A DNA stretch of 37,672 nt, taken from the NCBI RefSeq assembly GCF_051903065.1, contig NZ_CP178442.1. One strand, written 5' to 3'. Shown here piece by piece: positions 15,420 to 33,816 of this stretch. A program made the position numbers and the translations under genes. The notes beneath the pieces were generated by a model. It had not been told where the DNA came from. It did no database searches and saw only the letters and a list, made by a program, of their open reading frames with translations. Each line of letters begins with the position of its first letter. The first letter of the stretch is position 1. The stretch comes from Escherichia coli (lineage in GTDB: Bacteria > Pseudomonadota > Gammaproteobacteria > Enterobacterales > Enterobacteriaceae).

Positions 15420-15935
15420 ATGAATATCCAGGAAGCATTAAACGTTTTTGGATTATCCGGCGAATTAACTGAAAAAGATATCAAAGCAGCATACAGAAAA
15501 GCCGCTTTAAAATATCATCCAGATCGTAACCCGTTAGGGGCTGAACTGATGAAAGCGGTAAATGCAGCTTTTGATGTATTGATGGCAAATATTGATAAAA
15601 TAAATCAGTTCCAGAGCACTGATGAACATGCACGATATAATTACGGTGATGACCTGGAAAAAGTATTAAATGTTCTTTCTGGTTTATCTGGTCTGGTATT
15701 TGAAGTGATAGGTAACTGGGTCTGGATTAGTGGAGAAACCCTTACACATAAGGAAACTTTGAAAGAAATCGGGTGTAAATGGGCGGCAAAGAAAAAACAA
15801 TGGTTTTATCGTCCAGACGAACATAAAAGTTACTGGAATCGTGAAGAACACACGATAGAAGAAATCCGCGCAAAATACGGTACAACCGGACAGCGCAGGG
15901 CGACAGGGTGGCAACGCGTGGAAACCAGAGCGTAA
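15420..15935 (+). CDS. J-domain (DnaJ-like) protein, 171 aa
   Basis: N-terminal J domain with HPD tripeptide (KDIKAAYRKAALKYHPDRNP); no Zn-finger/Gly-rich DnaJ regions, so a J-domain-only cochaperone-like protein. Confidence 0.7.
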   Translation: MNIQEALNVFGLSGELTEKDIKAAYRKAALKYHPDRNPLGAELMKAVNAAFDVLMANIDKINQFQSTDEHARYNYGDDLEKVLNVLSGLSGLVFEVIGNWVWISGETLTHKETLKEIGCKWAAKKKQWFYRPDEHKSYWNREEHTIEEIRAKYGTTGQRRATGWQRVETRA

Positions 15936-16039
15936 CCAGAACGGGGGCGAGAAGCCCCCGATATTATAGCCAGCCCGTCTTTTGGGGCATCGAACCCAAA
16001 AAGACGGGAACAGCAGCCACGTAGCAAAAAGGGAAACAG

Positions 16040-16582
16040 ATGAACTCTTTTTTTGAACAATATCACCCTGTCTTTGAAGTTGTCTGCCGTATCCTGGGGA
16101 ACGGCTGGCGCGTGAACAAACTTGATGATTGTTCGTCTCGTATAAAACTGACGTCACCGCAGTTTAAAAATTACTCTGTGCATATTCGGATGGAAAAAGA
16201 CCGGTTTTCTGTTGTGGGGAGTGTGGATAGTCGCTCCTGGCGTAGTCCGCATCATGTTTGCACGTTATCCAGAAAACGGAATCCCGTTGATATTGCAGCC
16301 GATATCGAGCGAAAAATTCTGGTAAATGCTTCGCAGGAGGTGTTACAGGCGATTGAGTATGAGAAACACCAGGTGGAAAAAAAGGACGAAATTCTGATCC
16401 TGAAAGGTATGTTATCGCAACTTGTCCAGCTTGAAAGCTGGTATGGGGCATTGACAGGCTTTAAAGCTGAAAACGGATTGAACGGTAAAGTCACCGAACA
16501 GGGCGACAGTTATGATTTACAGATTCGGGGCTTGAGTATAGATCAACTTGTTAAAATTACAGGGTATTTGAAACAGTTATGA
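16040..16582 (+). CDS. hypothetical protein (180 aa)
   Basis: Intact ORF co-oriented with flanking genes; no recognised motif. Confidence 0.45.
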   Translation: MNSFFEQYHPVFEVVCRILGNGWRVNKLDDCSSRIKLTSPQFKNYSVHIRMEKDRFSVVGSVDSRSWRSPHHVCTLSRKRNPVDIAADIERKILVNASQEVLQAIEYEKHQVEKKDEILILKGMLSQLVQLESWYGALTGFKAENGLNGKVTEQGDSYDLQIRGLSIDQLVKITGYLKQL

Positions 16583-16830
16583 GAAAAAATAAAGGTGATG
16601 TGACTTATTTTCTTGAAAAAGAAGGTGACAATTACAGGCTTACAAAAAGGATAAAAGCCAGAACAAATGTTAAAATCGGGAACAAAACTACGAAAATTAC
16701 ATTGTATGATGCCGTACTGAATGAGAATGAATTACAACATATTGATTTTACGTGTGCCGGATTAAGGGAAGACGATGAGACGCCAGTTAAGAATTTAATT
16801 AAGGAGTTTATGTTAAATGAAACCCGATAA
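16579..16830 (+). CDS. hypothetical protein (83 aa)
   Basis: Start overlaps stop of upstream ORF (ATGA coupling); no recognised motif. Confidence 0.4.
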   Translation: MRKNKGDVTYFLEKEGDNYRLTKRIKARTNVKIGNKTTKITLYDAVLNENELQHIDFTCAGLREDDETPVKNLIKEFMLNETR

Positions 16831-17044
16831 TACACCTGAAAATGTAAAAAAATTACGTTTAAAAGCAGGATTAACACAGAAAGAATGCAGTCATATTTAT
16901 GGTGTTGGGCTAAGAACCTGGCAGAAAAAAGAGGAGGTTAATACTCAAAACAGTCAAAGTCTGTCACTGGTTGAGTTTGAGTTTCTTTTGTTACTTGCAG
17001 GAGAACATCCTGAATACGTGCTCTGCAAAAGGGAGTCAAAATAA
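16817..17044 (+). CDS. small XRE/Cro-type helix-turn-helix protein (75 aa)
   Basis: HTH-like segment LRLKAGLTQKECSHIYGVGLRTWQKKE typical of XRE-family regulators; overlaps upstream ORF. Confidence 0.5.
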   Translation: MKPDNTPENVKKLRLKAGLTQKECSHIYGVGLRTWQKKEEVNTQNSQSLSLVEFEFLLLLAGEHPEYVLCKRESK

Positions 17045-17078
17045 AATGACCTGTGATGGTTTTATATTAGTACCTGGA

Positions 17079-17498
17079 GTTGCGCCCGTAGCTCGCTGAC
17101 GCTCACACGCGCAGTACAGCGCCCCGCCATGCTGCAATGCACCAGGGCGGGGTAAACTCGCTTGCGCTCGCGCTAACTGCGGCATTCTGCGGCGCAAATC
17201 AGCATAATCATAGCCTGCTGGTCAGTTGGGCTTTGCAGGGTGAAGGGATGTCCTGTGCGCCCTGGTACGTTCATCAGCGGCTGCGCCGCGCTTTGGGGCG
17301 ATGTGGCTCCTGTGCTGCCCTGGTATTTTCGTTCGCCCCTTCCATCCGCTTACGCGGATTAAAAAACGTGATAACAATCACTTATCGAGTAAAAAAACGG
17401 GAGAACACTTGCAAATACGACTTAAAGGTCGTATTATTGTTTCATCGAAAGGGGAATGGCCCCTCTCACAATAGCCCAGCAGGGCAGGAGATTTAAAA
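17079..17498 (+). repeat. about 420-bp GC-rich direct repeat, copy 2 (ends at the ATG of the downstream 99-aa gene)
   Basis: Matches 14999-15418 (offset 2080 bp); the only difference seen is the A-run length just before the start codon. Confidence 0.85.
17409..17437 (+). promoter_or_regulatory. near-consensus sigma70 promoter inside repeat copy 2 (TTGCAA -17 bp- TATTAT)
   Basis: Same sequence as 15329-15357, positioned upstream of the ATG at 17498. Confidence 0.45.
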
Positions 17499-17797
17499 TG
17501 AAATGCTCATCTGTTTTTACTTCAACCACTAATCATGTTTTCACATTCGAACGAGTAACGCTTTGCACTATTATCCTTATGCATAAGGATACGGGACAAC
17601 AGTATGTTGTCATATTTACTGATAACAATAAAATTCGTGACTATAAAACCGGAATTGTTCCTCAGTTTGGCGAAATTAAGCAGAGTGATGTTGATTTAGT
17701 CCTTTTCTACAGGGACGAATATGAAAAATATTTTGATTCGTTAAAAGATGGTGATGAATGCTTGAGTTTTAAAGATTTTATTGAGTGCCTTCGTTAA
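17498..17797 (+). CDS. hypothetical protein (99 aa)
   Basis: ATG directly after repeat copy 2 with the same caggag RBS; the ORF-track N-terminus (17456) lies within the repeat and is unlikely to be coding. Confidence 0.45.
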   Translation: MKCSSVFTSTTNHVFTFERVTLCTIILMHKDTGQQYVVIFTDNNKIRDYKTGIVPQFGEIKQSDVDLVLFYRDEYEKYFDSLKDGDECLSFKDFIECLR

Positions 17798-17891
17798 GCA
17801 TTATAAATGCAGGGGGGGGGAACCCTGCATTTTCTGGAAATTTCAATATTGATTCTTAAATTGTCTATTAACATCAATGCAAGGGAAATTC

Positions 17892-18242
17892 ATGAAAACG
17901 TTAAAACAAGCCGCAATGCAGTTTGCATCTGATCTGCGTAATAATCGCTGTTTTAAAGCTGCTTATAATGATGCTCTGTTAGAGCTTGATCGGGAAGATT
18001 TAAACGCCATTGTACAATGCACATTTCTTTTTGAGCCAAAACGAACATTAGCCGAACTTGATAAATTAATTAAAAAGATAGAAGTAGAAGAAGATTATGA
18101 GTTTTGTGTATCCCTTGATAAAGGTAATGGATTACACGAAGTCAGGATATTTAAAAGTGAGCGTGAGGCGTTGGATGCTTATCGCATTTTGACTCTTTAC
18201 GGATACACAGTAACTATAGAAAAGAAGGAGGGTAATGACTGA
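17892..18242 (+). CDS. hypothetical protein (116 aa)
   Basis: Intact ORF; second in-frame Met chosen as start (aagggaaattc upstream); no recognised motif. Confidence 0.4.
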   Translation: MKTLKQAAMQFASDLRNNRCFKAAYNDALLELDREDLNAIVQCTFLFEPKRTLAELDKLIKKIEVEEDYEFCVSLDKGNGLHEVRIFKSEREALDAYRILTLYGYTVTIEKKEGND

Positions 18243-18317
18243 CTATTCAATGTGTGATCAGGTTGTTCCACCAACCTGATCACGTTATCGACAATCAAAA
18301 CTGAATGAGGTTTTTAA

Positions 18318-18455
18318 ATGTCAACGCGGCAGATCGTACAGCTTGCTGATTCCCTTGTCAAAGGCTGGGAAACCAGAATTCCGGCAATGAAATTTAGTGA
18401 ATGGGATCAATTCCGGTGGTGGTTAAACTACTTGCAAGGGTATGAAATGTTTTAA
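18318..18455 (+). CDS. hypothetical small protein (45 aa), below ORF-track size cutoff
   Basis: ATG 18318 preceded by tgagg RBS-like sequence; ORF ends directly before a rho-independent terminator-like hairpin. Confidence 0.3.
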   Translation: MSTRQIVQLADSLVKGWETRIPAMKFSEWDQFRWWLNYLQGYEMF

Positions 18456-18461
18456 ATAAAA

Positions 18462-18490
18462 AAAGGGGCTTTCTGCCCCTTTGTATTTTT
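18462..18490 (+). terminator. rho-independent terminator-like hairpin (aaaggggc-tttct-gccccttt followed by T-run)
   Basis: 8-bp GC-rich stem with 5-nt loop followed by gtatttttt; lies between the small ORF and hicA. Confidence 0.6.
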
Positions 18491-18546
18491 TGACAAAAAT
18501 GCTATGTGTAACTATAATTAGTTGCATATCTATAGGGGATGGATTT

Positions 18547-18795
18547 ATGGGGAAAACAGATAAGCTACTGGCAAAGTTTTTAAACAGTAAAAAAACGTTT
18601 GAATGGGATGAACTGGTCGTTTTGTTTTCCTCTCTGGGGTATGTCAAAAAGGAAATGCAGGGGTCAAGAGTGCGGTTTTTCAATGCTGAAATCAATCACA
18701 CCATATTAATGCATCGTCCACATCCGGAAAGTTATATCAAAGGTGGTACGCTGAAAGCAATTAAACAGAATCTGAAAGAGGCTGGATTATTATGA
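18547..18795 (+). CDS. hicA: HicA-family toxin (mRNA interferase), 82 aa
   Basis: MGKTDKLLAKFL...GYVKKEMQGSRVRFFNAEINHTILMHRPHPESYIKGGTLKAIKQNLKEAGL parallels HicA (GSH..H.....PHP...L..GT...I.KQAGL); overlaps start of a HicB-like gene. Confidence 0.7.
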   Translation: MGKTDKLLAKFLNSKKTFEWDELVVLFSSLGYVKKEMQGSRVRFFNAEINHTILMHRPHPESYIKGGTLKAIKQNLKEAGLL

Positions 18796-19139
18796 AACAT
18801 TTAAAATATAAAGGATATTTAGGCACGGTTGAACCCGATTTTGAAAATAATGTCCTGTATGGAAAACTGGCGTTTATTCGGGACCTGGTAACTTATGAGG
18901 CTTCTACATTAGCTGAACTGGAACAGGAGTTTAAAACATCTGTTGATCTGTATTTACAGTCTTGTGTGGAGGATGGAAAGGAACCTGATACCCCGTTTAA
19001 AGGCGTGTTTAACGTCAGGCTTGATCCAGAACTGCATCGTCGGGTAGCAGAAATGGCGATGGAAGAAGATTTATCGTTGAATGCCTTTGTTAATAAGGCT
19101 CTGGAAAAAGAAGTCAGCAATCATCGCGCAGGGGCTTAA
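18792..19139 (+). CDS. hicB: HicB-family antitoxin with C-terminal RHH DNA-binding domain
   Basis: 115 aa; C-terminal segment GVFNVRLDPELHRRVAEMAMEEDLSLNAFVNKALEKEV is a typical RHH; genetic coupling with hicA. Confidence 0.7.
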   Translation: MKHLKYKGYLGTVEPDFENNVLYGKLAFIRDLVTYEASTLAELEQEFKTSVDLYLQSCVEDGKEPDTPFKGVFNVRLDPELHRRVAEMAMEEDLSLNAFVNKALEKEVSNHRAGA

Positions 19140-19397
19140 TTGCCCTTGTTTTTTTATGCCCTGTAAGGGCATGGGAGGCGCTTTGCGCCGGAAGCCCCGC
19201 AGCGCAGCGAGGACTTAAAAAGCGTTACGGCTTCAGCCGTAACAATTCCCAGCCCTGCCAGGCCTGTTTTTTCTTTCACAAATCTTTCAGCTATACGTTT
19301 GCCAGATGGTCGAAGACGAAAGAACCTTTCAGCAACGAAATCTGGACATATGCCGAGACGATTTTATAGCCATGCACAGTGTCACATATGGTACAAT

Positions 19398-19489
19398 CAA
19401 TGCAGGATAGACAATCATGGTCAAAATGTTAACATTTTATCCATGATTGTCCAAAAACGATGTTTTTGCCTGTGCCTGCCGCAGGCTCT
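19398..19489 (-). promoter_or_regulatory. 92-bp element, inverted copy of 10923..11014; candidate origin of transfer adjacent to the relaxase operon (nic motif TATCCTGC on bottom strand, 19402-19409)
   Basis: Exact reverse-complement identity to 10923-11014; lies 13 bp upstream of the taxA-like gene and is preceded by hairpins (gttacggc-ttca-gccgtaac at about 19216-19235). Confidence 0.55.
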
Positions 19490-19502
19490 GTTGGGGTGAG
19501 TT

Positions 19503-20006
19503 ATGAAGATGATAGCGTTCAGACTTAGTGATGATGAGTTAAAACTTGCAGAGCATAACGCTATATCAAGTGGGTTTACCAGCATCAATACATTTGCCAG
19601 GCATAATGTGCTTAATGTTGATGTTCAACCATCAAATATACCTGTCAGCAATGAATCATCAAAGGCTGTTAAAACCTGTTTATACCCTCATGAAATAGAA
19701 CTTGTTAAACGTAATGCTGCCCTTCACGGCATGAGCATGAGCAGAGAAATTGCTATTCGTGTGCGTCAGTCTTTGTTAAAAAATGAAGTCTGTCTTTACC
19801 CTGATGAAGTTAAGGAACTTAAAAAACTATCAACTGCTGTAGATCGTGTTGGTCGCAACATTCATTTTATCATAAAAGGTGAAAGATTCTGTACGGTTAA
19901 CGATCCTGATTTCAGAAAAGACGTTATTGAAGTGATTGAACTGTGTAAGCAAATTGATTCAAAACTTGAAACGTTAACCAAGAGTGTTGTTAACCGATTT
20001 GGGTGA
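19503..20006 (+). CDS. taxA: relaxosome accessory protein (TaxA-like), RHH-type DNA-binding
   Basis: 167 aa; N-terminal RHH-like MKMIAFRLSDDELKLAEHNAISSGF and a second similar segment; immediately upstream of relaxase gene. Confidence 0.6.
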   Translation: MKMIAFRLSDDELKLAEHNAISSGFTSINTFARHNVLNVDVQPSNIPVSNESSKAVKTCLYPHEIELVKRNAALHGMSMSREIAIRVRQSLLKNEVCLYPDEVKELKKLSTAVDRVGRNIHFIIKGERFCTVNDPDFRKDVIEVIELCKQIDSKLETLTKSVVNRFG

Positions 20007-20009
20007 TTT

Positions 20010-21239
20010 ATGGGTGTGTATGTAGAACAGGAATACCGTATTAAACGCGCTAAAGGGACAGGGCGTGATCCGAAATCTCCTAAGTTATCAGGAAGACATA
20101 TACATGCCAGTAAATCGGCTTTTAATCATAAAGTCAGACATGGCGCAGACAAGAAAGCATATACCTGGACGCCAACAAAAGAAGTCACTTTTAAAATCAC
20201 TGGTTCAGGGAAAACAGCCGCAGGTATCAAAAACGGTATTGATTACATTACCCGTAATGGTGAACTTGAGGCTTACTGTTATGATGGAAAAGGTTCAGAG
20301 CAAACAGGGAAAGGAGAAGACTTTAACAGGGAGTTTACTTCAACTTTATCTAAAGGAAATGATTACTCCAGGACATATCGTGGAGAAAACATCGATCATG
20401 TGAAAAACATGGTCTTTTCACCACCACCAGAAGCTGGAGTAAGCAGGGAAGACGCTCTGAAAGCTACGGTAGAATTTCTTAAAGAGACTTATCCAAACCA
20501 TGCTTTCGTTGCCGTATACCATGATGATAAAGAAGATCATCCTCATGTACATGTTAATATTAAACTTCGTGATGAAGAAACAGGAAGAAGATTAAGACTT
20601 ACTAAATCTGAAACCAGGAAGTTCAGAAACGGTTTTCATAGAAAACTGAAAGGTATGGGATATGATGTTACCGCTACCTGGAAAAAAGATCCCGAACGTA
20701 AACGGGAGATTGAGCGATTACAGGCTGAAAATCCGAAAAGACTCCGGAATGTTTACAAGGTGGTGGATTTTGGGGAGACTTCATATCAGAATAAGGCAGG
20801 GGAAAAACGAACACCTTTCCTCACTTATGAAACTTTAAAAGGTGGAAAACAGGTTACGATTTGGGGTAAAGACCTGAAAAATCATTTCGAGTCTGAAAAG
20901 CTCCAGCCAGGAACGCTTATCAAAGTAAAAAAACTGGCTCCTACGCTTGTACGTAGTCCAATGTTTAATGATGATGGAACTGTTGCAGGCTACAGGGAAA
21001 CGCATCGCAATAACTGGCAGATTGAAAATATTGCCCTTGAGCGGAACAGAGAACGTCAGGTTCATGAGCGTGAAACCAGGCAGCCGGAAGAGAGCGACGT
21101 TAAAAAGCAGCTATCCAGAAAACATGAGCAAGGTCACAATATCGGGTTTGCTCTTGAACACGGGTTTACAAAGGATTCAGAAGAACATAAAAAACTAAGA
21201 ATACAGCAAGAGAGGAACTGGAAAGGCCTGGGATTTTAA
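20010..21239 (+). CDS. taxC: conjugative relaxase, MOBP family (TaxC-like)
   Basis: 409 aa; histidine-triad metal-binding motif HDDKEDHPHVHVNI typical of MOBP relaxases; N-terminal region with candidate catalytic Tyr. Confidence 0.75.
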   Translation: MGVYVEQEYRIKRAKGTGRDPKSPKLSGRHIHASKSAFNHKVRHGADKKAYTWTPTKEVTFKITGSGKTAAGIKNGIDYITRNGELEAYCYDGKGSEQTGKGEDFNREFTSTLSKGNDYSRTYRGENIDHVKNMVFSPPPEAGVSREDALKATVEFLKETYPNHAFVAVYHDDKEDHPHVHVNIKLRDEETGRRLRLTKSETRKFRNGFHRKLKGMGYDVTATWKKDPERKREIERLQAENPKRLRNVYKVVDFGETSYQNKAGEKRTPFLTYETLKGGKQVTIWGKDLKNHFESEKLQPGTLIKVKKLAPTLVRSPMFNDDGTVAGYRETHRNNWQIENIALERNRERQVHERETRQPEESDVKKQLSRKHEQGHNIGFALEHGFTKDSEEHKKLRIQQERNWKGLGF

Positions 21240-30938: not shown

Positions 30939-31967
30939 ATGAGTGGCGTTATTCCTGTCAGCATTAGCAATAAATCGCTCGATTTTTATAAAAATCAAGT
31001 ATTCCAGTCTTTTCTTGATATTGAAGGGCTAACAGAAATTGCTGTCAACCGTCCTGGTGAAATCTGGACGGAAATTAATGGTGACTGGACATTCCATAAT
31101 AATGACGGTGTGACCTTTGATTTTTGTAAACGGTTTTCTCAGACGCTGGCATCATTTCGGGGAGATGAAATCGGCGATACCAAGCCATTACTTTCAGCAA
31201 CACTGGAATCAGGAGAACGTGTACAGGTCGTTTTTCCTCCTGCATGTGAGAGAAATACTATTTCAATCACCATACGTAAACCATCGACACGGCAGATAAC
31301 GCATAAAGAATATGTGGCGAACGGTTTTTATGATTATGTCCAGTCAGGAAAAAAACACAGGACATACGATGATGAGCTTCTTGATTTATTCAGAGCGAGA
31401 AATATCGCTGCTTTTATGGAGCTTGCCGTAGCAGCAGGGAAAACCATTGTATTTGCCGGAGCAACGGGTTCCGGTAAAACAACTTATATGAAGAGTCTTA
31501 TCGATTTCATACCATTGAATACACGGCTGATTACGATTGAAGATGCAGAGGAAATCAAATTTTTTATCCATAAAAATTATGTGCATCTTTTTTACCCTTC
31601 GGAATCCGGCAGTGATTCCGGCTCTATCATAACAGCAGCGAAATTAATCAAATCCTGTTTGAGGATGAAACCTGACAGAATTTTACTGGCGGAAATTAAA
31701 GGTGGCGATGCCTGGGATTTTGTGAAAGTTGCTGGTTCTGGTCACAGTGGAAGCATGACGTCCATTCACGCGGCCTCGGCAAAAGATGCCATCATTCAGA
31801 TGGTGACAAAATGTTATCAGAATAGAGAATGTCAGAATCTTCCTTTTGATGTTCTTCGTAAAATCATTATGGACAGTATTGATATTGTTGTTCATGTAGG
31901 CAGGGATGGTGTTGTCAGGCATATGAGCGACATCTATTACAAAGGGGCTGAATGTGAAAACTTTTAA
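30939..31967 (+). CDS. pilX11: VirB11-like traffic ATPase
   Basis: 342 aa; Walker A GATGSGKTT, Walker B/His box region (ILLAEIKGGDAWDF, GSGHSGSMTSIHA). Confidence 0.88.
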   Translation: MSGVIPVSISNKSLDFYKNQVFQSFLDIEGLTEIAVNRPGEIWTEINGDWTFHNNDGVTFDFCKRFSQTLASFRGDEIGDTKPLLSATLESGERVQVVFPPACERNTISITIRKPSTRQITHKEYVANGFYDYVQSGKKHRTYDDELLDLFRARNIAAFMELAVAAGKTIVFAGATGSGKTTYMKSLIDFIPLNTRLITIEDAEEIKFFIHKNYVHLFYPSESGSDSGSIITAAKLIKSCLRMKPDRILLAEIKGGDAWDFVKVAGSGHSGSMTSIHAASAKDAIIQMVTKCYQNRECQNLPFDVLRKIIMDSIDIVVHVGRDGVVRHMSDIYYKGAECENF

Positions 31968-33816
31968 TAAGTCGCAATCTGTTTTTATATTCGCTGTTAT
32001 GCTTGTTGCGGCATGGTTTGCAGGTTCATTTATTTTCTTTGTGCTTTACTTCAGCCAGATAAAGAATCTGAAACCATTGAAGGCTGTGTTCAGATCCATT
32101 GATGCGTACAGGATGGATATTTTTACAGACAGCCTTACTTTATCTGTTGTGACTACGGATATCAGAATTTTAGCCTTTGTTGCACTTGGAGCAGGATTTG
32201 TCGTGTCTCTTATCATCCCTGTTGCGGCGTTGATAAAACTGAACGAGAAGAAAGAAAATATTTTCGGTGATGCGCGATTTGCAACAATTAATGATATTCG
32301 TGAGTCTAACAGTTTCACGCTTGACGGTGACGAAAAAGACGGGATTATCGTTGGTATAAAAGACAAGAAAATAATACGCTATGTGGGAGCAGCATTCAGT
32401 GCTATGGGAGCCGGAACAAGGGCTGGTAAAGGTGCTGGTATAGTCATCACTAATCTTATGAAGTACTGGTGGAGTGTTATTATTCTCGATCCAAAAAGGG
32501 AGTGTTTTAATATCACCAGTCTTATCAGGAAGGTGATTTTAGGTCATGAGGTTTATAAATTTGATCCCTTTAGTCCGGTAACGCACCGCTTTAACCCTTT
32601 GTATTATGTCAGCATGGGAACGAGTGAAGGTTTTAACCAGCTTGAAAATCTTTCGTTGATTATTTACCCCTATAAGACAGATGGTGCGGATGCTGGTAGC
32701 TATCTTAATAAGACGGCGGGTGGTGTTTTTAAATCTTATGCTGTCGCTTTATGGTTTATGATTAAGAATGATAAGGCTGGACTAAAAACGCTTGATATTG
32801 AGCCTGTCTTCTCAATGTCTAAAATTAATCAGCTTTTTGAGCGTGCAGAACCCGAACATCTTCTTTCATTCATGAATGATATTCGTTCAGAATTAAGGGG
32901 GAAAGACAAAACGCTTGCTGATATTGGTGTAGCTGGCCTTAAGGCATTCATTGAGATGGAGGATAAAACAAAAGCACAACTCAAAAGCAACTTTCTTAAT
33001 GGATTATCACCGTTTGCTAACCCCAATGTGGCAAATGCTACTGATGGAAATGATTTTGATTTGCGGCAGGTGCGGAAAAAGCGGATGACAATTTATTTCT
33101 GTATTTCTGGTGATAATGCCAGGTTGGCTGAAAAAATAACAAATATTTTCTTTCAGCTTGCTATACAGGTGAATCTTGAAAAGATGCCAACGGATGATCC
33201 GGAAATAAAGCATGACTGCCTTTTTCTACTGGATGAATTCCCGTCAATTGGTGCTGTAGATTACATCAAGAGTAAATCTGGTCTCATTGCTGGTTACAAG
33301 CTGAAATTGTTGATTGTTTACCAGGTCGGCTCTCAGCTTGAGGAAATCTACAGTTATGCAGGCAGTAAAACATTACTGGCAAGTGCACCCTGCAAAATTG
33401 TTTATTCCGCTTCTGATGTTAAAGATGCGCGGGAGTTATCAGAAGCGATGGGGACACGAACAGTAACTATCGGTTCGAAAAGCAAAAGTCGTAGTCGTGG
33501 AGGAACATCGAGATCTGAATCAGAAAGCCTTATTGAGCGTCCACTGGTAACAACAAATGAACTACTTACACTGAAATTTAGTGAAGAAATCCTGGCAATG
33601 AAGGGAGAAAACCCGATTCGTTGTGAAAAGGCATTCTACTATCTCAATGAGTATTTCTTTGGTGACTTTGTGAAGGTTGCTCCGGAACTTGCAAACATTT
33701 TCCCCAGGAAGAAAGGAAAGCTGGTTATGCCTCCACAGAAAGTATTTGAAAATGAAATCGTCGCAAAAGGGTATCTGGCAGTAAAAGATGTTCCTGATCT
33801 CGATAAAGCGGCATAA
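31954..33816 (+). CDS. taxB: VirD4-like type IV coupling protein
   Basis: 620 aa; two N-terminal TM helices, Walker A-like GAGTRAGKGAG, Walker B LLDEFPSIG; follows virB11 homologue. Confidence 0.85.
   Translation: MKTFNKSQSVFIFAVMLVAAWFAGSFIFFVLYFSQIKNLKPLKAVFRSIDAYRMDIFTDSLTLSVVTTDIRILAFVALGAGFVVSLIIPVAALIKLNEKKENIFGDARFATINDIRESNSFTLDGDEKDGIIVGIKDKKIIRYVGAAFSAMGAGTRAGKGAGIVITNLMKYWWSVIILDPKRECFNITSLIRKVILGHEVYKFDPFSPVTHRFNPLYYVSMGTSEGFNQLENLSLIIYPYKTDGADAGSYLNKTAGGVFKSYAVALWFMIKNDKAGLKTLDIEPVFSMSKINQLFERAEPEHLLSFMNDIRSELRGKDKTLADIGVAGLKAFIEMEDKTKAQLKSNFLNGLSPFANPNVANATDGNDFDLRQVRKKRMTIYFCISGDNARLAEKITNIFFQLAIQVNLEKMPTDDPEIKHDCLFLLDEFPSIGAVDYIKSKSGLIAGYKLKLLIVYQVGSQLEEIYSYAGSKTLLASAPCKIVYSASDVKDARELSEAMGTRTVTIGSKSKSRSRGGTSRSESESLIERPLVTTNELLTLKFSEEILAMKGENPIRCEKAFYYLNEYFFGDFVKVAPELANIFPRKKGKLVMPPQKVFENEIVAKGYLAVKDVPDLDKAA

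Follow-up and report, generated by a model that had tools for sequence, protein, structure and literature searches.

The window analysed here, 37,672 bp in full, is a complete IncX4 plasmid of the pSD11/cfr type (pSD11 carries cfr and comes from swine Escherichia coli), from E. coli contig NZ_CP178442.1 of assembly GCF_051903065.1. We studied a seven-gene cluster at 15420-18455, defined from the list of open reading frames (ORFs), whose first gene encodes a J-domain protein (hereafter the J protein). Seven co-oriented ORFs had been described in the original prediction, lying between a toxin-antitoxin (TA) module and hicAB and near a candidate transfer origin (oriT). All seven are present on the plus strand, and the placement is borne out by a RelE/ParE-type TA pair upstream (13884-14406), hicAB downstream (18547-19139) and an oriT-like repeat at 19398-19490. 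The gene order had to be corrected. It was given as J, three unknowns, a helix-turn-helix (HTH) protein and two unknowns; the actual order, with sizes in amino acids (aa), is J, 180 aa, 83 aa, HTH, leader cassette B, 99 aa, 116 aa and 45 aa, which places two unknowns before the HTH gene and three after the cassette. The features are as follows.

14999-15419, plus strand: CUP-like leader cassette A, abutting the ATG of the J gene
15335-15354: palindrome ATACGAC-N6-GTCGTAT in the promoter spacer of cassette A, a candidate operator
15420-15935, plus strand: J-domain protein, 171 aa, matching Pfam DnaJ PF00226 at E 4.3e-11
15942-15960 and 15975-16009, plus strand: two GC-rich hairpins between the J and 180-aa genes, with no T-run after them
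16040-16582, plus strand: 180-aa protein of no sequence family
16579-16830, plus strand: 83-aa lysine-rich protein, its start overlapping the stop of the 180-aa gene (ATGA)
16817-17044, plus strand: 75-aa XRE/MqsA-type HTH protein with NCBIfam and PHROG HTH matches, overlapping the 83-aa gene by 14 nt
17079-17497, plus strand: CUP-like leader cassette B, with promoter at 17409-17437 and palindrome at 17415-17434, abutting the ATG at 17498
17498-17797, plus strand: 99-aa acidic protein (ORF5)
17892-18242, plus strand: 116-aa acidic protein (ORF6), variable cargo of close relatives only
18254-18283, plus strand: hairpin with a 12-bp stem upstream of the 45-aa ORF, conserved, with a variable loop and one compensatory pair
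18318-18455, plus strand: 45-aa Trp-rich protein, unannotated in RefSeq
18462-18482: bidirectional terminator-like hairpin that closes the second operon, conserved in relatives

Six of the seven ORFs are supported as coding, since other plasmid backbones have homologues of their proteins in unchanged order; ORF6 has a homologue in one close relative only. A further ORF of 38 aa (15908-16024) was rejected as a gene. Existing annotations call the products of the cluster J domain-containing or hypothetical. Across this region (14800-19200) the plasmid is 99.9-100% identical to many IncX4 records.

Leader cassettes, their candidate operator and their kinship with CUP repeats

The cluster comprises two operons, each of which begins where one identical 420-bp cassette ends. 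The duplication of the leader cassettes claimed earlier is exact, since 14999-15418 and 17079-17498 form a direct repeat of 420 nt with 100% identity and each copy runs into a gene ATG. In cassette A, a GC-rich structured part (~14999-15290) is followed by the promoter TTGCAA-17-TATTAT (15329-15357), a 5' untranslated region (5'UTR) with two small hairpins, and the Shine-Dalgarno sequence (SD) AGGAG at 15406-15410. The distal part, ~290 nt long, has ~60% G+C compared with ~40% for the plasmid, and a small conserved hairpin and an A-tract separate it from the promoter, which a promoter scan identified as a near-consensus sigma-70 promoter. The two 5'UTR hairpins carry compensatory changes among cassette homologues. 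We recovered 13 full-length homologues from five other plasmids (65-83% identity), the relatives holding two to four copies each. All 13 end at the ATG of a gene, which encodes a J protein or one of various small ORFs, and the cassette is thus a portable expression unit.

Some related copies are shortened. The cassette before the J gene of the IncI2 locus (5638-5895) has an internal deletion and keeps only ~49 nt of its distal part, joined directly to the promoter-proximal 220 nt, alongside two further copies of full length, and the cassette before the IncX6 J gene retains the promoter-proximal 110 nt only. An ORF of 119 aa within each cassette was discarded as spurious, as homologous copies carry frame-breaking indels of 1, 2 and 4 nt.

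A CcgAII annotation in the relative pE105-2 prompted a comparison with IncN plasmids. Run against R46, the nhmmer profile of the 13 cassettes matched three CUP repeats (E 1.8e-13 to 2.1e-12; model positions 43-397), and the same profile matched the region upstream of the IncX3 J gene (E 3e-26). Aligned cassettes and CUP repeats have common blocks from the distal hairpin through the SD. Judged by their sequences, the IncX4 cassettes are a diverged branch of the CUP family, a link with IncX or IncI2 cassettes for which we found no paper. A fourth, partial match of the profile in R46 (32852-33014, E 1.5e-05) lies between the rep gene (31743-32462) and a resolvase gene (33148-33744), in the orientation opposite to the three leading-region matches.

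Our statements on the CUP regulon rest on later papers that describe the work of Delver and Belogurov. In the passages of these papers that deal with it, CUP are repeats of >400 bp preceding the transcription units of the pKM101/R46 leading region, and the regulon is presented as a set of establishment units controlled by ArdK/ArdR, possibly in a manner like zygotic induction (PMC5371602, PMC6294495). The IncX4 arrangement is alike in having several repeats of >400 bp, each directly before the first gene of an operon; operons co-oriented towards oriT in the leading region; a GC-rich distal part, sigma-70 promoter, putative repressor site and SD in each repeat; and a candidate plasmid-encoded repressor within the regulon. 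It differs in that identity is only ~65-75% and patchy, the IncX4 promoter lies ~25 nt further downstream, and the place of ArdK/ArdR would be taken by a 75-aa XRE-type protein that is unrelated to them and has a palindrome of its own. The cargo also differs wholly, with no ardA, ardB or ccg genes in the window, and the host plasmids are MOBP/IncX, IncI2 and some IncFII rather than IncN.

The palindrome ATACGAC-N6-GTCGTAT is present solely in the two cassettes. In related plasmids its dyad is kept by paired changes, to ATACATC/GATGTAT in IncI2, ATACGTC/GACGTAT in pJARS36 and ATAGGTC/GACCTA in IncX6, and IncX3 has ACCATCA-TT-TGATGGT at the same place instead. The HTH protein is the fourth gene wherever the four-gene core of the first operon (J, 180 aa, ~84 aa, HTH) occurs. 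Its recognition helix is LRTWQKK where position 5 of the half-site is G and LSTWQKK where it is A; the helix reads ARSWRRK in IncX6 and LSAWQAK in IncX3, so that in IncX3 both helix and palindrome differ. Because helix and palindrome vary in step, there is suggestive evidence that the palindrome is the operator of the 75-aa HTH protein and that this protein represses both cassettes.

The J protein and the genes conserved with it

The J-domain with an HPD motif that had been read from the sequence is well founded: besides the Pfam match, HPD is invariant in 22 aligned homologues and the flanking KYHPDRNP is invariant or nearly so. The description of the product as J-domain-only does not hold, as a conserved second domain occupies residues ~85-160. 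The protein thus consists of a J-domain (~1-65), a linker and a C-terminal DUF5710-like domain (hereafter the C-domain). The AlphaFold2 model (predicted local distance difference test score, pLDDT, 71) has the J-domain at 1-65, a disordered linker, and a helix plus a beta-beta-alpha-beta-beta unit at 76-130. The closest solved relatives are the J-domains of DnaJA1, Ydj1 and DnaJ (~40% identity), and Foldseek and phmmer also matched J-domains. Several database entries for J proteins are 222-292 aa long compared with 171 aa here; we suspect N-terminal extensions into the cassette, which are probably annotation artefacts.

Specialised Hsp40s in general pair a J-domain with a targeting domain that is separate from it. 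Since the J-domain is canonical, recruitment of host DnaK is the natural expectation, and the J protein probably does so. It has the canonical helix II-HPD-helix III arrangement in common with DnaJ, CbpA, DjlA and viral J-domains such as that of polyomavirus T antigen. Unlike DnaJ, it has no G/F region, zinc finger or client-binding C-terminal domains. It differs from the specialised J co-chaperones in that its C-domain is a small Trp/Lys-rich DUF5710-like module of mobile elements and its gene lies in a plasmid leading region.

We searched the C-domain alone (residues 62-171) against 1.84 billion representatives and obtained matches in 1723 clusters, counted at 50% identity, at E <= 0.001. 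Most matches are proteins of 160-175 aa in which the match is C-terminal, as in the query, and the three of these that were sampled all have a J-domain; many others are stand-alone proteins of 90-130 aa. The C-domain is also fused to an M78/ImmA-type peptidase, to a RepB-type primase with seven DUF5710-like repeats, and to a protein whose N-terminal part appears staphylococcal-nuclease-like when read by eye, a resemblance unconfirmed by Pfam. The gene of the ImmA/IrrE-type M78 peptidase fusion (1783-2853 of a metagenome contig) adjoins an XRE repressor gene and lies 1.5 kb upstream of a TrwC relaxase gene, a context that hints that the C-domain senses or binds something linked to DNA transfer.

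The assignment to DUF5710 is by resemblance. Pfam DUF5710 (PF18974) gave no match to the query at E <= 10 and weak matches to relatives of the C-domain (four of 10; nine of 24 at E <= 0.1, one of them at 7e-4), and we found no functional literature on it. In the 22-homologue alignment, the C-domain is rich in invariant Trp, Lys and Gly. Because mobile elements carry the module in a co-chaperone, in a primase, in a repressor-cleaving protease and in a probable nuclease, it is most simply explained as a targeting domain, with DNA or a DNA-bound host or plasmid protein as the target. As an orphan module this widespread among mobile elements, it has a partner worth knowing.

The core of J, 180-aa, ~84-aa and HTH genes is conserved in order and orientation, with oriT on one side of it and the replicon or a divergent parA-like gene on the other. 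We found it on IncI2 plasmids, on pE105-2, on Yersinia pestis pJARS36, on IncX6 pGN28-KPC and on IncX3 pP768-NDM5, where it lies 1.3-3.2 kb from taxA. It also occurs on an IncFII/MOBF plasmid, in an F-type leading region upstream of a DUF932 gene. A tblastn search of PLSDB detected the J protein in 2578 of 72,556 plasmids, of which 83% are conjugative. The 180-aa protein was detected in 2061 plasmids, all from Enterobacterales, and this number equals the Enterobacterales share of the J matches. More distant proteins with a J-domain and the C-domain are encoded on Acinetobacter MOBF plasmids, where the gene precedes those for the coupling protein and the relaxase by ~2 kb and shares their orientation, and on Enterococcus plasmids, where they adjoin ssb and a thermonuclease gene.

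Searches of all ORFs with Pfam, NCBIfam, PHROGs and PADLOC recognised only the J-domain and the HTH; weak matches to IbpB, PtuB, a restriction AAA protein and an EF-hand were judged to be due to chance. The structural model of the 180-aa protein (pLDDT 92) consists of two alpha+beta units, and the N-terminal unit resembles the class I chaperones of type III secretion systems (T3SS), YbjN and PsiB. The protein differs from all of these in its second alpha+beta unit and in sequence, as no sequence similarity was detected to PsiB (hhalign probability 0.2%) or to any PDB chain. The 83-aa protein is found at the same position in five backbones, with 39-45% identity. The overlaps of the 180-aa and 83-aa genes and of the 83-aa and HTH genes suggest coupled translation. 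The two hairpins at 15942-16009 might set the expression ratio of the genes on either side or stabilise the mRNA.

Parts of the second operon (99, 116 and 45 aa) vary from plasmid to plasmid. Only the C-terminal 40 residues of the 99-aa protein are conserved, in distant plasmids and in the phage family phrog_2061. We place its start at 17498, the ATG that corresponds to the start of J in the alignment; RefSeq has a longer version from 17456, which begins inside cassette B and is probably an annotation artefact. The 45-aa product is the most conserved of the cluster, with 89-98% amino acid identity where the J and 180-aa proteins have 53-64%. Compared with the pJARS36 and IncX6 copies, its ORF has 11-12 synonymous and five non-synonymous codon differences, a pattern by which it is a real gene under clear purifying selection. 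It occurs in 1124 plasmids, almost always without an annotated feature. Relatives with ~48% identity to the 45-aa protein are present on Klebsiella plasmids of 65-99 kb.

Predicted order of entry and a proposed establishment regulon

The transfer origins and the further genes needed for the order of entry are listed here.

19398-19490, minus strand: oriT copy beside ddp1/taxA-taxC, with an inverted repeat at 19410-19451 and TATCCTG/C (slash, nick position) at 19409-19402
10925-11015, plus strand: second, inverted oriT copy, with TATCCTG/C at 11003-11010
11511-12518, minus strand: pir
12849-12982: iterons
14424-14780: antidote-like HTH gene, upstream of the cluster
19503-20006: ddp1/taxA
20010-21239: taxC (relaxase), with VirB-type transfer genes beyond

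The inverted repeat by taxA is a 42-bp palindrome, and the TATCCTG/C motif follows directly 3' of it on the minus strand. YATCCTG/Y is the nick-region consensus of the RP4-type MOBP relaxases. By this consensus, the nick would fall after TATCCTG on the minus strand, leaving the 5' end at 19402; the minus strand would then be transferred and would enter towards lower coordinates. The prediction is that hicBA enters first; the second operon (ORF7 through ORF5) and cassette B would come next, then the first operon (HTH through J) and cassette A, and after these the TA pair and the replication origin, which would place hicAB and the cluster within the first 4 kb to enter. The cluster genes are co-oriented with taxA/taxC and directed at oriT, and under this order of entry all of them would be templated by the transferred strand. 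The leading regions of F, ColIb-P9 and pKM101/R46 are likewise arranged, with the transferred strand as template and the genes pointing towards oriT, and Samuel et al. (PMC11541004) stress that leading-region genes are templated by the transferred strand.

The two oriT copies, each ~95 bp, bracket an 8.4-kb segment with pir, the origin and iterons, the TA pair, the cluster and hicAB. The IncX2 plasmid R6K reportedly has two functional oriTs. The bracketed segment would be first in from either copy, and the template strand would be transferred only from the taxA-side copy.

We propose that the nick at the taxA-side oriT brings the minus strand first into the recipient. Each operon is headed by a CUP-family cassette, in which the GC-rich element is followed by a strong sigma-70 promoter, a 5'UTR that is conserved, and the SD. 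If priming took place within the GC-rich element of the transferred strand, extension could run through the promoter and the operon, so that duplex would form there first, a reading in keeping with the geometry. In a recipient free of repressor, expression of both operons would surge and then cease, in a zygotic induction by autorepression. The J-domain of the first product would switch on host DnaK, and the DUF5710-like C-domain would direct it to a nucleoprotein substrate of the plasmid that is entering. The translationally coupled and co-conserved 180-aa and 83-aa proteins, the former with a chaperone/adaptor-like fold, would act with the J protein.

Taken as a whole, we judge it somewhat probable that the cluster is an autorepressed CUP-type early-establishment (leading-region) regulon that recruits DnaK; for the regulon and its leading-region location as such, our confidence is high. 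The idea of an establishment-type region with repeated leader cassettes, already voiced in the original prediction, is supported by the RP4-type nick geometry, the F-type leading-region location on IncFII and the homology with CUP. Any particular client of the J protein is doubtful, and remodelling of the initiator or relaxosome, as proposed earlier, must count as guesses. We also regard as tentative, and rather unlikely, the specific idea that the J and DUF5710-like protein is a dedicated plasmid-encoded Hsp70 targeting factor that acts in the first minutes after entry on the nucleoprotein complex of the incoming strand. If true, the factor might, for example, act on the unfolded relaxase at the arriving 5' end by refolding or releasing it, or strip host proteins from the transferred strand. 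It would then represent a new class of establishment function in conjugative plasmids of Enterobacterales, Acinetobacter and Enterococcus, with the 180-aa protein as client adaptor.

Several observations weigh against the proposed regulon or parts of it. The nick position is deduced from consensus, with the MOBP-type motif only, and use of the second, inverted oriT copy would bring the cluster in early but on the non-template strand. The pairing of HTH protein and palindrome rests on few independent lineages, and the dyad could be a DNA hairpin rather than an operator. No homologues of ArdK, ArdR, ArdA, ArdB or the ccg products were found by tblastn of all cluster proteins against R46. We found no solved or characterised relative of the C-domain in a Foldseek search of the PDB and the AlphaFold database, which returned J-domains and unannotated members only. 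The GC-rich element may prime complementary-strand synthesis, by inference only. Its two strands fold almost equally well, and the count of G-T versus A-C pairs, by which they might be told apart, is 4-6 versus 3, few pairs in helices predicted on both strands. The conserved -35/-10 hexamers lie outside the GC-rich fold and have no complementary arm.

These properties of the GC-rich element bear on a second reading of the cassettes, as single-strand promoters of the Frpo/ssi type that fire on the transferred strand before it is made duplex, and not as repressor-controlled duplex promoters. The cassettes are the most stable 300-nt single-stranded DNA (ssDNA) folds of the 7.5-kb region (-60 to -73 compared with -12 to -45 kcal/mol elsewhere), with z-scores of -3.2 for the transferred strand and -2.2 for the other, and one 10-bp hairpin shows covariation, with three pair types at several positions. 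As in F, ColIb-P9 and pESBL, the leading-region operons are preceded on the template strand by repeated, strongly folding GC-rich elements of ~300 nt, and new classes of ssDNA promoters without Frpo homology have recently been found (PMC12672017). The likeness to the leading regions of F, ColIb-P9 and pESBL extends to the location beside oriT, the transferred strand as template, the dispersed repeated structured elements ahead of operons and, presumably, early transient expression.

Against this reading, the cassettes showed no similarity to the Frpo regions of F by MAFFT, sensitive blastn or nhmmer, and their fold energies are above the -75 kcal/mol cut-off used for pESBL. No conserved promoter candidate was found inside the GC-rich part, the sole conserved -35/-10 pair is the near-consensus duplex promoter outside it, and the local hairpin at the hexamers is the spacer palindrome. 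As the hexamers stand outside the fold with nothing to pair with, rather than in a long hairpin, the cassette is unlike a Frpo-type single-strand promoter. The single-strand reading fails two defining features, Frpo homology and a hairpin that rebuilds the duplex -35/-10, and we consider it improbable. A further difference from Frpo/ssi leading regions is that the IncX4 cluster has no ssb, psiB or ardA. The group of H-NS-carrying plasmids that includes this one is almost devoid of Frpo (PMC12826799). The view taken there, that such plasmids have no leading-region-based establishment, rested on BLAST with Frpo sequences and was therefore blind to these cassettes; a CUP-type regulon on H-NS-carrying plasmids qualifies it.

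An anti-defence island, in which one or more of the small proteins of the cluster would be expressed early and neutralise restriction, CRISPR or another defence of the recipient, is about equally improbable. On the transferred strand, leading regions hold an excess of anti-defence genes (PMC11541004), and the position and strand of the cluster fit the islands of that 2024 study by Samuel et al. The homologous IncN CUP cassettes drive ardA and ardB, and the variable small acidic proteins of the second operon are a pattern typical of such islands. However, general searches of NCBIfam, Pfam, PHROGs and PADLOC gave no known anti-restriction, anti-CRISPR, SOS-inhibitor or defence-related match, and the isoelectric points of the cluster proteins (5.0-8.7, none strongly acidic) are unlike those of DNA mimics of the ArdA/Ocr type. 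The J/180/83/HTH core is moreover invariant across backbones, not variable. The anti-defence function suggested earlier is therefore unsupported. The family table of PMC11541004 lists only a five-member DnaJ family.

A replication or maintenance role, in which the J protein would recruit DnaK to turn dimers of pi, the pir product, into active monomers and the cluster would be a stability module, seems slightly less probable still. DnaK, DnaJ and GrpE activate initiators of iteron plasmids such as P1 RepA, F RepE and R6K pi, and the cluster lies 2.4 kb from the iterons. In PMC5868456, dnaJ is a core IncX marker and is listed in the maintenance group; this label is an annotation only. The four-gene core is also on IncI2 and IncFII plasmids, whose replication control differs in kind, and the J and C-domain family extends to Acinetobacter and Enterococcus plasmids. 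The constant feature is how near oriT and the relaxase gene are and how the module is oriented towards them, not the replicon. Least probable, and very unlikely in our judgement, is a role for the 180-aa protein as a functional PsiB analogue that damps the SOS response to incoming ssDNA, possibly with DnaK: although the plasmid has neither psiB nor ssb and an Enterococcus J gene adjoins ssb, this rests in the model on the common fold only, PsiB ranks 22nd among the fold matches, with many secretion chaperones and proteins of the YbjN type ahead of it, the match spans only about half of the 180-aa protein, and sequence similarity is lacking.

We found nothing functional and no experiment in the literature on a J-domain protein in leading regions or on the IncX4 leading region. 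Four points appear to be unrecognised in the searchable literature: the homology between the cassettes and CUP, a leading-region logic for IncX and IncI2 plasmids, the breadth of the J family together with its two-domain make-up, and the conserved 45-aa gene. The plasmids that chiefly carry mcr-1 and blaNDM-5 are those of IncX4, IncI2 and IncX3, and the core is present on ~2,000-2,600 of the 72,556 PLSDB plasmids. With four conserved genes and one candidate operator, the regulon is a small and defined target for studying the use of chaperones at entry and for blocking establishment.

Minor features of the neighbourhood

Cassette A, unlike cassette B, has a perfect AT-rich palindrome of 36 bp, TGTTAATGCTAATGTATGCATACATTAGCATTAACA, a short way upstream (14945-14980). 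This palindrome might terminate the TA/HTH operon or be a site for a protein. The sole Rfam match in 12500-20000, to mir-155, falls on this palindrome and is spurious. At 18490-18518, hicAB has a perfect consensus promoter, TTGACA-17-TATAAT.

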